From Ostreococcus lucimarinus (taxonomy: Eukaryota), in NCBI GenBank assembly GCA_000092065.1, contig CP000583.1: DNA of 64,000 nt; one strand, given 5' to 3'. A program made the translations under genes and the position numbers. Positions 56,963-63,734 of this stretch are shown one piece after another (position 1 is the stretch's first letter; every line of letters starts with the position of its first letter). A model generated the notes under the pieces. That model was not told the origin of the DNA and did not search any database. It saw only the letters and a program-made list of their open reading frames with translations.

Positions 56963-57066
56963 CCGTCCAACAAGACTTTCAAGGTGAAGAAGATTTTGGG
57001 GAAGAAGCAAAAGCAAAACCGCCCGCTTCCCCAATGGATCCGCATGCGCACGGGTAACACCATTCG
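56963..57066 (+). CDS. RPL39: RPL39 exon 2: [34 protein letters not shown](R)
   Basis: Matches eL39 (Arabidopsis [51 protein letters not shown]); acceptor GACGCAG| with branch GGACTGACCGAG; donor CG|GTACGTACG. Confidence 0.85.
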
Positions 57067-57194
57067 GTACGTACGCGTTTAGGTTTTTTCGCGCGACGAG
57101 CGCCGACGAGTCGCGCGAACGACGCGATCGATGACGCGATTTTGACGACGACGACGCGCGAGTACTGACGATGATGATGTGTTCGTACGCGCAG

Positions 57195-57243
57195 CTACAA
57201 CGCGAAGCGTCGACACTGGAGACGCACCAAGCTCAACTTGTAA
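57195..57243 (+). CDS. RPL39: RPL39 exon 3: (R)[15 protein letters not shown]
   Basis: Acceptor CGCGCAG|C, branch AGTACTGACGATG; total CDS 3+104+49 nt = 51 aa + stop. Confidence 0.85.
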
Positions 57244-57591
57244 GCGAGCGCGGTGGGATTTGTGTAGACGAACGAGCAGAGTCGTGTTCGACGTCGGCGC
57301 TCTCGAGCGGAATAGCGTTCTGTAGTGGAACTCGCGCGAGGGCACGAACGGAGATGAGACGAACATCGCACGTAACTTAGCGATTTAAGAAGCAGAATTA
57401 GTTCTTCCTCATCGCGTCGCGCGACGCCGACGCGTCCGCCCGCCCGCGCCGTCGTCTCGTCCCCCGAACGCGCCCTCGCGCGCGCGACGACGTCACGACG
57501 CGCGCGCGACCGCACTCCCATCACTCGCAGTATTATTTCGTATTATTTCAATCTTCATCCATCGCGATCCCGCTTCGCGCGCGATCTCGTC

Positions 57592-57924
57592 TCAACCGTC
57601 GGCGCCTTCGCTCGCGCATCCGTCCCCCTCCCGCGTCGACGTCGCGTCCCCCTCGCGCGCGCCTCGCTCGTCCGGTTCCCTCGCGCTGTCCTCCGTCGTC
57701 CCCTCCCCCATCGCGCGCCCCTCGCTCCTCGTCGCCGCCGTCCCGCCCGCGTCCCGCCGCCGCGCCTCCTCCGCGCTCTTCCGCATCGCCCAATCCGCGC
57801 TGTCGAAGTGTTTCACGTCCGTCGCGATCAACCGCGGTTTCGGTCGCAGATCGTCGCCGTACTTCGCCCTGAACGCGCGCTCCGCCTCCGTCGCCGCCGT
57901 CGCCGCCGTCGCCTCCCGCGCCAT
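57592..57924 (-). CDS. ENSA: Endosulfine/ARPP-19-like (ENSA family) small phosphoprotein
   Basis: MAREATAATAATEAERAFRAKYGDDLRPKPRLIATDVKHFDSADWAMRKS carries the ENSA-family FDSGDY-type Greatwall-site motif (here FDSADW) with upstream AKY and basic stretch; lies in the 3' part of a long antisense artefact ORF. Confidence 0.5.
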   Translation of the reverse strand: MAREATAATAATEAERAFRAKYGDDLRPKPRLIATDVKHFDSADWAMRKSAEEARRRDAGGTAATRSEGRAMGEGTTEDSAREPDERGAREGDATSTREGDGCASEGADG

Positions 57925-58506
57925 GTCGCGCGTCGCGCGATGCGCGCGATCGCGCGACGCGCGCGCGGCGCCATCCGACGTGGCGGGGCGCGCGCGACGG
58001 ATTCGCGCCGCGCGACTGTTTGCGCATACGACAGAGGGTTCGTCTCGAGTCGCGAACGGTCGACGCACGCGCTCGCGCCGGCGCGCGCGAAACGACGAAT
58101 CGTGACTCGTGACTCGATAAACGACGAATCGTGACTCACGACTCGATGGCCGGCGTCCATACGTACCCCCCGACTCTTGAGTCACGATCGGTCGTTTCAC
58201 AACCCTCGACACGAGGCTCGAATCCGCCGGCGTCGACGTCCGCGCGCGACGCGCGACCGACCGCGCGCGCGACGCGAGATCGCGGCGCGTTCGCGCGACG
58301 AGCGACGCGCTCGAGCGCGTCGACGTCGGCGTCGCGCGCCGAGCGAAAGCGCCGCGCGCGCGCGCGAACGCGGCGACGCGACGGACGCGAATCATCGATC
58401 GCGGGCGTCGATCGCGCGATTCGTCGCGGCGATCGATCGACCGATCGCGGGCGCGGACGCGCGCGAAGACGCGCGGGAGGGCGCACGCGCGGGCGCGGGA
58501 CGCGGG

Positions 58507-60432
58507 ATGCGCGCGGCGGTGACGCGGGCGACGCCGGGGGGGCGCGCGGGCGAGGCGAGCGGGCGGGGGGGAGGGAGGGCGCGCGCGGGGACGCGCGGGA
58601 CGCGGGCGACGCGGGGACGCGCGCGATTCGTGGCGACGCGCACGAGCGGTAGCGTGGGGGACGCGGAAGCGCAGGAGGGAGATGAGCCGGACGTGAACGA
58701 TATGTTCGCGGCGGCGGCGAATGAAATGCAGGCGTCGGAACGATTGGAGCGGGACATTCCGGAGTCGATGACGGTGAGGAAGTCGGCGCCGAGGACGATG
58801 GCGTCGTTCGACGGCGCGGACGAGGATGATGAGGGGAACACTGTGTTGGAAACCGTTCTCGATGTCGCGCGCGATCCGGAGAAGGTCATCAAGGGCGTTG
58901 CCGCGGCGGTGACGTTGGGGACGGCGTACACGGTGGCGAGCGAGCCGGCCTTGGCCGCGGGAGGGGCGGCGGCGGCGCTCCTCGTCATCAAGGTTCTCGA
59001 AGCGTTGGCGAAGGAGGGAGATCAAACTCCGGCTGAATTCCAAGCGTCGCTTAAGAAGGATATCAAACCGTTGATGGAAAAGTTGCCGAAAGATTTCGAC
59101 GCGGAGGCGCTCACGAAGAAGGCGTCGGAGACCGGGGCGAAACTCTTTGAAAGGGCGCAGTCGGTGACTGATTCTTTCGATGAGGTGTTTGGTGGGTTGA
59201 ACTTTGGTGGCGACGCAGACGATGAAGCCGAAGCCGCGGCTTCCAAGTTGCTTGAAATCCGTAGGGCGGACGAGAAGGCTGCGTTGGAAGCGCAAGCCGC
59301 CGAAGACGCCGCGGCGTCGTTCGCCGAAACCGAGGCCAAGGCCAAGGCTGACGCTGCCGCCGCCGCCGCCGCCGCCGCCGCTGAAGCCAAGGCGAAGGCT
59401 GACGCCGAAGCCGCGAAGATTGCCGCCGAAGCCAAGGCGAAGGCTGACGCCGAAGCCAAGGCGAAGGCTGACGCCGAAGCCGCGAAGATTGCCGCCGAAG
59501 CCAAGGCGAAGGCTGATGCCGAAGCCAAGGCGAAGGCTGATGCCGAAGCCAAGGCGAAGGCTGACGCCGAAGCCGCGAAGATTGCCGCCGAAGCCAAGGC
59601 GAAGGCTGACGCCGAAGCCAAGGCGAAGGCTGACGCCGAAGCCAAGGCGAAGGCTGACGCCGAAGCCGCGAAGATTGCCGCCGAAGCCAAGGCGAAGGCT
59701 GATGCCGAAGCCAAGGCGAAGGCTGACGCCGAAGCCAAGGCGAAGGCTGACGCCGAAGCCGCGAAGATTGCCGCCGAAGCCAAGGCGAAGGCTGACGCCG
59801 AAGCCGCGAAGATTGCTGCTGCCAAGGCGAAGGCTGACGCCGAAGCCAAGGCGAAGGCTGATGCCGAAGCTGCGAAGGTTGCCGCTGCCAAGGCAAAGGC
59901 TGATGCCGACGCCGAAGTTAAGGCGAAACGCGCGGCTGAAGCTGAAGCCAAGAAGCGCTCGCAAGAGGAAGCCGAACAGAAGGTTGCGCAACAAGTGATG
60001 GCGGCACAGAAGGTGGCGAAGAAACAAGAAGAGTGGGAGAACTCTTTGCTAAAATTGCAGTACAGCGAGCAGATCATTGAAGATATTCGCGTCGCGGACG
60101 CAAACGCGGTTGAACGCGCGCATGCGCGTCGCCTCGGATTGGATTTCACCCCAGAAGTGGCAAAACAAATGCCAGGAACCGAGTACTCTTGGGGCTCGCA
60201 GACGAACGTCAAACCTGGTGAAGTGATCAGCGCTTTGAACTCCGCCGATGAAGGTTTTGCGTCGTCGAAGAACCGCGCTCGTTCGGCGCTCGGATTGCCG
60301 CAGAAAGACGACCAGCCGGTGGCGGAGAAGCAAGAGCCGTGGTGGGCGACTTTCATAAGAGTTTTCGTGAACATGTTGATCGCTGCCGCCATCGCTGCGT
60401 TCACGTACTTGGTCGTTCGTAGCATGCTGTAA
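58507..60432 (+). CDS. Tail-anchored protein with transit-like N-terminus, helical N-domain, ~190-aa (AEAKAKAD / AEAAKIAA)n array and C-terminal TM helix
   Basis: Non-repetitive N-domain (MFAAAANEMQASERLERD...KLFERAQSVTDSF), 24-bp coding tandem repeats 59340-59900, C-terminus EPWWATFIRVFVNMLIAAAIAAFTYLVVRSML*. Confidence 0.6.
   Translation: MRAAVTRATPGGRAGEASGRGGGRARAGTRGTRATRGRARFVATRTSGSVGDAEAQEGDEPDVNDMFAAAANEMQASERLERDIPESMTVRKSAPRTMASFDGADEDDEGNTVLETVLDVARDPEKVIKGVAAAVTLGTAYTVASEPALAAGGAAAALLVIKVLEALAKEGDQTPAEFQASLKKDIKPLMEKLPKDFDAEALTKKASETGAKLFERAQSVTDSFDEVFGGLNFGGDADDEAEAAASKLLEIRRADEKAALEAQAAEDAAASFAETEAKAKADAAAAAAAAAAEAKAKADAEAAKIAAEAKAKADAEAKAKADAEAAKIAAEAKAKADAEAKAKADAEAKAKADAEAAKIAAEAKAKADAEAKAKADAEAKAKADAEAAKIAAEAKAKADAEAKAKADAEAKAKADAEAAKIAAEAKAKADAEAAKIAAAKAKADAEAKAKADAEAAKVAAAKAKADADAEVKAKRAAEAEAKKRSQEEAEQKVAQQVMAAQKVAKKQEEWENSLLKLQYSEQIIEDIRVADANAVERAHARRLGLDFTPEVAKQMPGTEYSWGSQTNVKPGEVISALNSADEGFASSKNRARSALGLPQKDDQPVAEKQEPWWATFIRVFVNMLIAAAIAAFTYLVVRSML
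59340..59900 (+). repeat. 24-bp coding tandem repeat array (gccgaagccaaggcgaaggctgac; higher-order 72/96-bp units) encoding AEAKAKADAEAKAKADAEAAKIA...
   Basis: Near-perfect DNA repeats visible 59341-59900. Confidence 0.9.
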
Positions 60433-60491: not shown

Positions 60492-63467
60492 TTAGGACGC
60501 TTTCAGTAGAACCTCGAGGATGGAGTCGGGCGCGATTCTTGCCACGTCGTCGTCGTCCGCAATCAAGGTGTCCGGTACCTTGAAAATCTGAAGCACTTGC
60601 ACGGGCTTAACTCTGAATTTGAGCGCAATCTCTTCTCGTAGTTCAAGGTACGTCTGTCGACCGAAAGGAATCTCGCGATAGTAACGCTCATTTGGAACCT
60701 TCACCTTGAGAGACACCGCTTGGTCGATAGGAAGTCCGATGGCTTGCTTGTCGACCTTGGCACGCATTCGGCGCGTATTATCAATGATTGTCGCCGCGTC
60801 TTCTGGCGTTAGCACCGCCGCTTCTTGCAATTCGGTGAAAAATCTAATCTTCAACGTCTCTGGACGAAGCTTTGCCGGTACTGATGCTCGTCTGGTTATC
60901 GTGAGATGCACATCGAGCAGAAATCCATGCTTGACGTCGTACACGAGTTCAATGATGGGGAGGTATCCTTCCCAACGCGTGATATCTTCCTCTTGCCACC
61001 TGACGCGCTGAATTGTGGTATCACCATTCGCGACACCATCTTCGCCAATGATAGCTTTGAACGCCAAATACTCGTCGAGAGCGTCGAGATTCATTGGTTT
61101 GTTCACCTTGATGCGATATGAAATTGCTCCCGCAGACTTGTCATCGATCGCCCTCGTTAAATAATACACGCCAAACGCAACCCCGACCCACGTACACATG
61201 CTAAGAATGAACCAGACCAGTGGTTTGTTCATAAACGGATCAACAATGTACGATCGAGCCCACTCTGTGTGCACGACGCTCCATTCGCCAGTGAGTCTGT
61301 CGAGCAACTCAAACGCAAGCATACCCGCGAAAATGAACTGCATGGTGTATAAGCTTGTCCCTTGTTTGCTGTTCGACTTGATTTGCACCAGCATCTCTCC
61401 ACTACTACCGCGAATGTCTTCGTGCACGCGCAACGCCTGCGACTCGGCTACTGTGTCCACCATGATTCGTAACCCATCGATTTCTTTGCGCGCCGCCTCG
61501 AGGATTTTCCGCATATCCGCCACACGAACCGTGAGATCAGCGAGCATAACTTTCAGGCCAAGGATTTCATAAAGTCTTCTTCCGCTTTCAGTATCTGGAA
61601 TGGTGTGAATACTCTCGTCTTGTTCGATTGATTCCTTCAAGTACACCAGGATTTCCTCGAGCAAAATGATGTCGCGCGAAGTCTCAGCGAGAGTGTGACG
61701 AATATTCGCAACACTGTTCGGATCTTCCTCGTGATTTTTAATCATCTGCCGGACGAGCTTGAGAATGTCATCCGTCATAAATATTCTGTTGAATACGTTG
61801 TGCACGAAGACATCTCTGGACATGATGGACAGGTACATCAACATCACTGGTTCCTGCGCCTTGGCGTTTGGGCCCGTGAGTAAGATGCCGTGAGAACCGG
61901 TGATGACGACATCACGGTCGCTCAAATCGTACGCTTCGTGCGTATCACCTAATACTTGTCTTAACTCGTTTTCGAACGCGTCCTTATCCATGTACATGTC
62001 CGCAGCCTGTTGCGGGGCAATGCGCTCGGCGATGATGATGTTAATTTTGTCTCGTCGTTCGGCGTTACCGAGGAAAACAGTTTGGAGCAAATCACGCTGA
62101 TGATCGCTCAATAGCGAATCTAAAATCGTACTTGAGTCCATATGCACGTCCACGAGTAAGCGCGCCAAGTTATCGAGCGAGATATTGTCCAAAATTCGAT
62201 CCATGACTGATTCAATCATCAAACCGTGCACAATGGTGCCGTCTTTGCGCAAGTGAATGCCAAAGTGCTCGACTTGCACGATACCATCGTCCTCAGGGAA
62301 GTGTACTTGAGCCTCAATGTTGGTGAACGTCGTCATATCATGGTCCAAAATGCTTACATTTGTCAAACCAGCTGGGATCTCACACGTTGCGTTGGTCGAG
62401 TCCGTATCCACCGTGGGGGTGAAGAATCCGCCCTGACATCTGTCGTTTGATCCCAGCTTCATGTTCAACTTGACGATTTGATTCACTCCGAACGGAATCC
62501 ATTCACCAACTAAGATTGTCACGTTGGATACCGTCATGACCTCGTCCAAATCATCGCGAATCGTGCTGTCTTTAGCCGCGCTCTCCGACGCTCGGTGCGA
62601 ATTTGACGACGTCACGGGACCACCTACACGCCGTAAAGCCAACGGAAGATACGGTGATACGACGTACGACACGTCTTCTACATCAGTTATTGTCGATTCG
62701 AACGAAATCGTTTCATTTCTCAAGTAAAAGGTCTCATCTTCCCACACCACTTGCAAAAGTTTCCCGTCGGCGACGCACAGCTCGTCCACCAACTGTCGAT
62801 CCTCTTCGCTCATGCGCTTACTCACGAGCGCCAACCCAGCGGCGGTGATCTGAAACGCCAAAACGCTCTGATGTTCCGCACTGCTCAGCCTCAACCCACG
62901 AATGAGCTCTCCCTCGATCAAATCGTCCAAATCGTCCACCCCCTCCTGCGACACGTTCAAGTACAAGCGCGTATTCTTCACCACCGTCGACTCCGGCGCG
63001 TAATCGTACTCGAACACCTTCTGCACGATCCCCTCATAAATCAACACCAACAGCGGCAACTTCCGCACCCACACCTCCTTCTCGTACGCCGACTGCGCGC
63101 GGTGCGAATACTTCGACACCAAGTACAACAGCTTCAGGTGGCTCACCGTCCAGTAATCGTCGTGAAACTCTCGACGCACTCTCGGCGTCAACCGCGCCGT
63201 CTCCGCCCTCGCGTCGACCAACGGTTTATCCTCGTACCCACTCCCCATCGTTTCCCACCCCCCCCCGCCGCGCCCGTCCTCGCCGTCGTCCTCGCGCGCG
63301 CCCTCGCGCGCGCCGTTCCCCCGCGGCTCGCGTCCCATCGTCGTCGTCGTCGTCCCCCCCCGCGCGTCGTCGCGCGTCCGCTCGCGCCGCACCGCGCCGT
63401 CGCGCACCGCCCGCTGCGCCTCGCGCGCGCCCGCGTCCGCGAGTCGCGCGATCGCGCGCGCGTCCAT
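60492..63467 (-). CDS. Large conserved hypothetical protein (~990 aa) with two C-proximal TM helices in a CorA/MRS2-like topology (no GMN motif) and a ~250-aa tail ending in a ubiquitin-like/PB1-like segment
   Basis: Long non-repetitive ORF; coiled-coil then TM1 SLYTMQFIFAGMLAF and TM2 PLVWFILSMCTWVGVAFGVYYL; C-terminal LKVKVPNERYYREIPFGRQTYLELREEIALKFRV..VLQIFKVPDTLIADDDDV. Confidence 0.5.
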   Translation of the reverse strand: MDARAIARLADAGAREAQRAVRDGAVRRERTRDDARGGTTTTTMGREPRGNGAREGAREDDGEDGRGGGGWETMGSGYEDKPLVDARAETARLTPRVRREFHDDYWTVSHLKLLYLVSKYSHRAQSAYEKEVWVRKLPLLVLIYEGIVQKVFEYDYAPESTVVKNTRLYLNVSQEGVDDLDDLIEGELIRGLRLSSAEHQSVLAFQITAAGLALVSKRMSEEDRQLVDELCVADGKLLQVVWEDETFYLRNETISFESTITDVEDVSYVVSPYLPLALRRVGGPVTSSNSHRASESAAKDSTIRDDLDEVMTVSNVTILVGEWIPFGVNQIVKLNMKLGSNDRCQGGFFTPTVDTDSTNATCEIPAGLTNVSILDHDMTTFTNIEAQVHFPEDDGIVQVEHFGIHLRKDGTIVHGLMIESVMDRILDNISLDNLARLLVDVHMDSSTILDSLLSDHQRDLLQTVFLGNAERRDKINIIIAERIAPQQAADMYMDKDAFENELRQVLGDTHEAYDLSDRDVVITGSHGILLTGPNAKAQEPVMLMYLSIMSRDVFVHNVFNRIFMTDDILKLVRQMIKNHEEDPNSVANIRHTLAETSRDIILLEEILVYLKESIEQDESIHTIPDTESGRRLYEILGLKVMLADLTVRVADMRKILEAARKEIDGLRIMVDTVAESQALRVHEDIRGSSGEMLVQIKSNSKQGTSLYTMQFIFAGMLAFELLDRLTGEWSVVHTEWARSYIVDPFMNKPLVWFILSMCTWVGVAFGVYYLTRAIDDKSAGAISYRIKVNKPMNLDALDEYLAFKAIIGEDGVANGDTTIQRVRWQEEDITRWEGYLPIIELVYDVKHGFLLDVHLTITRRASVPAKLRPETLKIRFFTELQEAAVLTPEDAATIIDNTRRMRAKVDKQAIGLPIDQAVSLKVKVPNERYYREIPFGRQTYLELREEIALKFRVKPVQVLQIFKVPDTLIADDDDVARIAPDSILEVLLKAS

Positions 63468-63734
63468 CGTCGCGCGCGCGTCGCTTAGTGCGACGCGCGC
63501 GCGACGCGAACGGGCGCCGCGGGCGCGCACGGTGCGCGATGCGGGACGGGATTTCGTGACGCGTTTTTACCCCGATCGATCGATCGGACGTTGGACGCGC
63601 ACATAGCACTAACGGCGCGTACACTACGCGCGACGCGAACGAATAGGGGCGCGACGCGGGACGGGATTTTGTGATTTGACGGCGCGGATTCGATTCGATT
63701 CGATTCGACGCGACGGGCGTCGGACGGCGACGCG

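Follow-up and report, generated by a model that had tools for sequence, protein, structure and literature searches.

The minus strand of the window, by which we mean the whole 64,000-nucleotide stretch of Ostreococcus lucimarinus DNA analyzed here, contains between positions 57592 and 57924 an intact single-exon gene for an endosulfine (ENSA/ARPP-19/Igo), in a picoalga of the Mamiellophyceae. In other eukaryotes, endosulfines are small inhibitors of the phosphatase PP2A-B55. We refer to this gene as ENSA. Read on the minus strand, its start codon is the ATG at 57924-57922 and its stop codon the TGA at 57594-57592, and the 110-aa translation begins MAREATAATAATEAERAFRAKYGDDLRPKPRLIATDVKHFDSADWAMRKS... 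The gene forms the final 110 codons of a much longer minus-strand open reading frame (57592..60027), which starts with TTG and would encode 811 aa. A previous sequence-only reading of this DNA had described the long frame, with GFGVSLRLGFG repeats in its translation, and had singled out a peptide starting at the ATG at 57924. Both were recovered, and the quoted peptide agrees with ours letter for letter; its 111 codons include the stop. The features of the locus are collected in Table 1.

Table 1. Features of the ENSA locus, in window coordinates.
Feature	Coordinates	Strand	Evidence
RPL39, tail-to-tail with ENSA	exons 56963-57066, 57195-57243	+	splice sites, Pfam Ribosomal_L39
AT-rich tandem GAAATAATAC x2, 43 nt downstream of the ENSA stop	57530..57549	-	conserved in L001, L010 and L005
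ENSA/ARPP-19 (endosulfine) homologue, complete single-exon CDS, 110 aa	57592..57924	-	translation, PF04667, homologues, GC3
Disordered, weakly constrained tail, residues 51-110, coding	57595..57774	-	GC3, dN/dS, AF2
Clade-specific tail motif T77-E-D-S80-A	57682..57696	-	alignments A1, A2
Endosulfine core, residues 14-50 (AERAFRAKYGDDLRPKPRLIATDVKHFDSADWAMRKS)	57775..57885	-	25 invariant columns, dN/dS, hhalign
Hallmark motif F40-D-S42-A-D-W45	57790..57807	-	invariance, unique in window
S42 codon, predicted Greatwall/MAST-type phospho-acceptor, ARPP19 S62 equivalent	57799-57801	-	alignment
Non-genic upstream stretch of the 811-aa ORF	57925..60027	-	flat GC, antisense, relatives' open lengths
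Repeat-protein gene, 641 aa, head-to-head with ENSA	58507..60432	+	ORF 58177..60432, BLASTP to O. tauri

On its 3' side ENSA faces RPL39, and the two stop codons are 348 bp apart. The spliced RPL39 peptide matches Pfam Ribosomal_L39 with E=6.4e-22 and is interrupted by a 128-nt GT..AG intron (57067-57194). The first coding exon appears to lie further upstream and to comprise the ATG or a few bases only. That ENSA converges on RPL39 had been proposed from the sequence and holds, as RPL39 is encoded on the plus strand and the same arrangement is found in Ostreococcus tauri. The AT-rich tandem GAAATAATAC probably marks a 3'-end/poly(A) region common to the two convergent genes. In more distant relatives, different AT-rich patches occur 80-130 nt past the ENSA stop. 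The intergenic region in which the tandem is set is otherwise very GC-rich. Short Logan contigs from this region (L011-L014) were considered as transcript evidence and rejected: they are collinear with the genome, keep the RPL39 intron and share identical ends. These ends look like breaks in the assembly graph, and the contigs are thus uninformative on transcription.

On its 5' side ENSA lies head-to-head with a gene for a protein that combines an AEAKAKADAE(AAKIAAE) repeat array with a C-terminal hydrophobic anchor segment (WWATFIRVFVNMLIAAAIAAFTYLVV). The 641-aa product has no Pfam match. Comparison with the annotated O. tauri neighbor (451 aa) by BLASTP gave E-values of 1e-15 for the N-terminal and 3e-31 for the C-terminal non-repeat blocks. 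This plus-strand repeat gene is genuine and separate from ENSA. Its called length ranges from 389 to 689 aa among relatives, a spread that suggests variation in repeat number. A minus-strand ORF of 1012 aa (60492-63530) adjoins the repeat gene in all relatives; its orthologues carry PF27231 (MJ1567), PF27230 (MJ1566_N) and a weak ANKRD40_UBL match.

The intergenic region between ENSA and the repeat gene contains a 29-nt tandem duplicate (58090-58118/58119-58147) and an inverted third copy at 58179-58197. The core of this repeat, GAGTCACGAT(T/C)(C/G)GTCGTTT, has four matches in the window, the fourth at 201-219, where 0.01 would be expected by chance. Copy number is one to three in close relatives (L001-L004, L010) and zero in more distant ones. 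The repeat may be a bidirectional-promoter element.

The order of genes around ENSA (MJ1567-like, repeat protein on the opposite strand, ENSA, RPL39 on the opposite strand, Yip1, RNA methyltransferase, pseudouridine synthase) is the same in all the relatives fetched and in the O. tauri reference genome. The O. tauri orthologue (XP_022838528.1; UniProt A0A090M4X3) is a 91-aa, single-exon 'unnamed product'. It shares its invariant core and its gene neighborhood with the window protein; overall identity is 55%, and both its N-terminus and its tail are shorter.

Upstream of the ENSA start, the 811-aa frame crosses the divergent intergenic region of 582 bp (57925-58506) and continues from 58507 to 60027 antisense to the repeat gene. 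The GFGVSLRLGFG-type repeat that makes up most of its translation arises from reading the AEAKAKADAE array in reverse complement. Read in the frame of the minus ORF, the intergenic stretch is flat in GC (GC1 0.72, GC2 0.72, GC3 0.76), and values over 58507-59400 are 0.78, 0.54 and 0.69, respectively. Beyond 58507 GC is highest at codon position 1, which pairs with position 3 in the plus-strand frame. The possibility that the endosulfine is the C-terminus of a larger protein, either the whole 811-aa ORF or an extended form such as the 174-aa model P0001, draws on the 708 upstream codons that are open in the window and the 639 open in L010, and on automated models that were extended upstream in some cases (P0001, P0010, P0013). 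More distant relatives, however, have only 8-142 open codons at this position, and contigs encoding the identical ENSA protein have merely 61-71, with no in-frame ATG among them, which makes the 708-codon opening incidental. The extensions disagree in frame and sequence among relatives, 57925-58506 is without GC codon periodicity, and what remains of the ORF runs antisense to a gene that is also conserved in O. tauri. We therefore assign the larger protein a negligible probability. The 811-aa ORF is an accident of GC-rich DNA in which ENSA, an intergenic region and the antisense of the repeat gene are fused. The description of the long frame as an antisense artefact is thus borne out by codon-position GC, by the O. 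tauri-conserved gene on the plus strand and by the short upstream frames of relatives.

ENSA itself behaves as a coding frame. GC by codon position over 57595-57924 is 0.70, 0.65 and 0.91 for GC1, GC2 and GC3, and the GC3 of 0.91 is confined to this frame. The ATG at 57924 is the first in-frame ATG past the intergenic region, and orthologues start within a few residues of it. Across the public-assembly collection, 43 blocks include contigs on which a gene for the identical 110-aa protein has been called. A look-up among protein clusters did not list the exact sequence, which we attribute to a difference between the two indexes.

Scoring the peptide against the Pfam Endosulfine HMM, which had been suggested as a check on the gene call, produced a match to PF04667 over residues 10-56 with E=1.2e-6 and 28.9 bits, marginally (0.9 bit) short of the gathering cut-off of 29.8 bits. 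Correction for the 531 frames in the window that are open over 60 aa or more raises the E-value to approximately 6e-4, which is still beyond chance. All relatives are PF04667-positive: precomputed matches were found for 23 of 23 in a search of 5.8 billion proteins. The PF04667 match, the conserved core and the orthologues with the same gene order together uphold the original call of a small gene of the ENSA/ARPP-19 family.

Conservation is concentrated in the core of the protein. Across the 23 relatives 25 columns are invariant, namely F18, K21-D24, P28, P30-A34, D36-R48 and S50. Where pairwise dN/dS was computable, its value for residues 14-50 was 0.02-0.39, with synonymous sites near saturation; the core is under strong purifying selection. 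The wider alignment A2, which includes land-plant-type sequences, has F40, D41, S42, A43 and D44 invariant in 34 of 34 members, and W45 is nearly invariant (at least 90%). Conservation of the FDSADW block in Mamiellophyceae had been named beforehand as a test of the call, and the block is indeed invariant in the orthologues, O. tauri included. A six-frame search of the window for the pattern FDS[AG]D[WYF] gave a single match, on the minus strand at 57807.

These data also bear on whether there is a gene here at all. Open frames are plentiful in the window (531 reach 60 aa and 20 reach 500 aa), ENSA is overlapped by a second open frame of 159 aa, and the Pfam score lies under the gathering cut-off, all of which would fit a chance frame in GC-rich DNA that happens to hold FDSADW. 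The overlapping minus frame (57548..58027) has no Pfam match and its GC peaks at codon position 2, not 3; it was rejected as a candidate gene. A chance origin for ENSA is effectively refuted by the block that is invariant in 23 relatives, the synteny that reaches O. tauri and the low dN/dS of the core, and it is further opposed by a GC3 of 0.91 found in the ENSA frame alone. We consider it wholly improbable.

The C-terminal tail differs from the core in constraint. Its dN/dS is about 0.4-1.6 (residues 51-110), AF2 gives it a pLDDT of about 50, and secondary structure is absent beyond residue 58. In L010 (4001-4336) insertions of +1 and +2, approximately 13 codons apart, rewrite the tail segment EPDERGAREGDATSTRE before the frame is restored. 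Such compensating insertions indicate that the sequence of the tail is little constrained apart from its openness. The tail contains a motif that appears as (T/P)(E/S)DSA in most relatives, at a distance from the core that varies (Micromonas-like relatives, O. tauri). The earlier suggestion that the tail might be partly intronic or UTR did not hold. Tail GC3 is 0.92 compared to 0.77 and 0.72 for GC1 and GC2, every orthologue keeps the frame open over a comparable span (86-111 aa), the L010 insertions return to frame, the (T/P)(E/S)DSA motif persists, and the O. tauri gene is a single exon; codon periodicity and the conserved reading frame rule out an intron or UTR, and the tail is coding.

When 1.84 billion cluster representatives were searched with a profile, 70 proteins scored E<=1e-3, and a sample of the matches includes land-plant-type sequences of the form KDHERAYFDSADWALGKQG...LRPKLQP. 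In alignment A2 the consensus of the land-plant-type sequences is QE..L.AKYGGL.PK..LI.KD.K.FDSADWAL.KQ, and 34 of 34 members match PF04667, the best at 3.2e-22. Alignment of the A2 profile (34 sequences) to human ARPP19 with hhalign gave a probability of 94.9% and E=4.3e-8. Residues 10-60 of the window protein are in register with ARPP19 residues 24-76, and S42 falls on the Greatwall site S62. The ARPP19 reference sequence was confirmed against PDB 8TTB chain D. BLASTP of the window peptide against human ARPP19 produced no significant alignment, and PDB searches with phmmer (peptide) and hmmsearch (clade profile A1) did not recover ARPP19/ENSA chains from a library that held 8TTB_D. The relationship, as the BLASTP result indicates, is visible to profile methods only.

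Several features that characterize the family are present in the window protein. The family hallmark is FDS(G/A)D (bioRxiv 10.1101/2023.07.05.547804, citing Labandera 2015), and it occurs as F40-D-S42-A-D44-W45 with the central serine in place. Upstream, the (A/K)-K-Y-(P/G) element and the K-P basic stretch are in register with ARPP19 residues 32-44 by hhalign, and K21, Y22, G23 and K29 vary little or not at all in the 23 relatives and in A2. The KxFDSxDW context, AKY and basic stretch picked out by eye in the sequence-only reading correspond to K38-H-F-D-S42-A-D-W45, A20-K-Y22 and R27/K29/R31. Size and disorder are likewise those of a family of mostly disordered proteins of about 80-140 aa with transient helices on either side of the motif: 110 aa, with AF2 helices at residues 3-22 and 42-58, the rest unstructured, and a mean pLDDT of 67. 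The C-terminal tail contains no PKA site of the form R-K-x-S-L. This site is reported to be restricted to animals (bioRxiv 10.1101/2023.07.05.547804) and is therefore not family-defining.

The conserved residues can be interpreted against the cryo-EM structure of thiophosphorylated ARPP19 bound to PP2A:B55 (PMC10765524). In this complex B55 is bound by ARPP19 residues 25-61, with Y59/F60/D61 splayed where B55 meets PP2Ac, and tpS62 is positioned over the catalytic metals. D61 and D64 form salt bridges to PP2Ac arginines, with D64 pairing with R89, and helix alpha4 (62-75) runs along PP2Ac. Y36A was the only single alanine variant among ARPP19 residues 32-41 to lower binding of B55 and PP2Ac (PMC10765524). 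In the hhalign register, Y36 maps to Y22 of the window protein, the Y59/F60/D61 kink to H39/F40/D41, tpS62 to S42 and D64 to D44, and all of these window residues are invariant in the clade. Among the helices, alpha4 corresponds to the AF2 helix 42-58 and ARPP19 alpha2 to the AF2 helix 3-22.

The window protein and human ARPP19/ENSA (8TTB chain D) are thus alike in being disordered proteins of approximately 110 aa with an AK(Y) element (Y22/Y36) and a K-x-F-D-S-x-D-aromatic motif, in which the phospho-serine (S42/S62) is followed by a conserved aspartate (D44/D64) and a helix runs from the phospho-serine. They differ in that the human motif is FDSGDY whereas that of the window protein is FDSADW, and in having Y59 where the alga has H39. 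The linker containing alpha3, the helix of the B55 platform, is 7 residues shorter in the window protein, and hhalign leaves P-R-L-I-A-T-D-V-K at this position. Owing to this shortening the F-L-R-x-R-L-x-K motif is not recognizable, R-L-I being all that is left of it; the motif was defined on human ARPP19 alone and lies outside the family definition (PMC10765524). The ARPP19 crossover (86-98), third B55 site (105-112) and PKA site are without counterpart in the window tail.

Since the ARPP19 contact residues are invariant in the clade, the window protein most likely inhibits PP2A-B55 in a phospho-S42-dependent manner while serving as its slow substrate. Homology suggests an intrinsically disordered protein in which residues 3-22 and 42-58 form helical segments, and whose S42, within K-H-F-D-S-A-D-W, would be the target of an AGC kinase from the Greatwall/MAST/Rim15 lineage. 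The phosphoprotein would then bind PP2A-B55, with the N-terminal AKY region and the basic/hydrophobic PKPRLI on B55, and pS42 would occupy the catalytic site of PP2A and block the phosphatase until its own slow removal. CDK substrates may thereby stay phosphorylated at division or at growth/quiescence transitions. Taken as a whole, a genuine endosulfine gene acting as a phospho-S42 PP2A-B55 inhibitor is the best explanation, and one that we consider highly probable, its mechanistic part being drawn from homology.

In the green lineage, the kinase acting on S42 would most likely be a MAST-like IRE-type enzyme. According to reviews, MAST-like IRE kinases occur in plants but a separate MASTL does not (PMC12024977, PMC11829769), and hence we infer the kinase and use 'Greatwall' loosely. 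In C. elegans the MAST kinase KIN-4 fills the Greatwall role on ENSA-1 (PMC11961639).

The same biochemistry could serve another role, coupling nutrients, light or TOR to quiescence or to entry into division in the manner of yeast Rim15-Igo1/2, rather than a mitotic-entry switch. The yeast endosulfine module ties TOR and nutrients to G0 and gametogenesis (PMC4072559 and PMC5618240), Arabidopsis MAST-like IREH1 and PP2A-B55 take part in a growth-versus-stress trade-off (PMC11670097), and the absence of a dedicated MASTL from plants (PMC12024977) points in the same direction. The sequence does not discriminate between the two roles, however, and the invariant FDSADW core fits a mitotic function equally well. 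We regard a quiescence-type role as a real possibility, though not the one we would expect.

Loss of activity towards PP2A-B55 in a true endosulfine homologue would be consistent with the missing alpha3 platform motif and C-terminal B55 site, given the 7-residue deletion relative to ARPP19 alpha3 and a tail unlike ARPP19 residues 86-112 (PMC10765524). Yet invariant residues make up both the kink and the contacts to the PP2Ac active site, and the same short linker is found throughout the wider FDSADW group, including the land-plant-type sequences. Moreover, according to reviews that cite Labandera 2015, plants conserve ENSA/ARPP-19, which apparently helps to keep PP2A-B55 inactive (PMC10418862). 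Such a loss is, in our judgment, very unlikely, and PP2A-B55 inhibition through phospho-S42 remains our preferred function. A more speculative extension of it is that the Mamiellophyceae possess a stripped-down endosulfine, which would use two of the three ARPP19 contact regions (short alpha3, no crossover or third site), be tuned by a second, clade-specific phosphosite in TEDSA and respond to a MAST-like kinase, not Greatwall, within one of the simplest eukaryotic cell cycles. We put this idea forward with considerable doubt.

Members of the endosulfine family were already known from plants and from most eukaryotes, and both the O. tauri orthologue and the exact window protein are public, although unnamed. 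Our literature searches found no paper joining endosulfine, ENSA or ARPP19 with Ostreococcus, and among the papers listed none joined endosulfine or Greatwall with Ostreococcus or Micromonas. The analysis gives a name to a probable small cell-cycle regulator carried in public annotation as an 'unnamed product' or 'hypothetical protein', and adds a Mamiellophyceae member to the family while leaving current understanding of it unchanged. It also provides an example of a short real gene hidden in a long spurious ORF of a GC-rich algal genome. In transformable Ostreococcus, S42 is the residue to mutate for probing a Greatwall/MAST-ENSA-PP2A-B55 switch in a minimal green cell.

Among known systems, the window protein resembles the ENSA proteins of plants and the green lineage (Labandera et al. 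2015, BBRC 458:739, through papers citing it), which share the FDSADW variant and, in A2, the AKYG...PK...LI...D.K.FDSADWA consensus, and have no animal PKA site. It differs from most other FDSADW sequences in what follows the core. Most of these carry an L-x-P-K-L-x-P block, and some R-R-x-S-x-L; the window clade lacks both and in A2 has the (T/P)(E/S)DSA motif instead. Many FDSADW endosulfines from outside the Mamiellales end in L-x-P-K-L-x-P followed by R-R-x-S-x-L(G), for example PARRSSQLGDGQ; the A2 members with this ending are metagenomic (P0061, P0072, P0079, P0083, P0089, P0091, P0095, P0099, P0102, P0106 and P0113). In form, the R-R-x-S-x-L(G) ending is close to R-K-x-S-L, the PKA site that according to a recent preprint is confined to animals. 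Yeast Igo1/Igo2, which are substrates of Rim15, and C. elegans ENSA-1, which is acted on by KIN-4/MAST, are family members that work on the same principle, with kinases other than canonical Greatwall driving the switch. These opisthokont proteins have an FDSGDY-type motif, and their roles in quiescence and embryonic asynchrony are experimentally established, whereas the Mamiellophyceae member is known from sequence.
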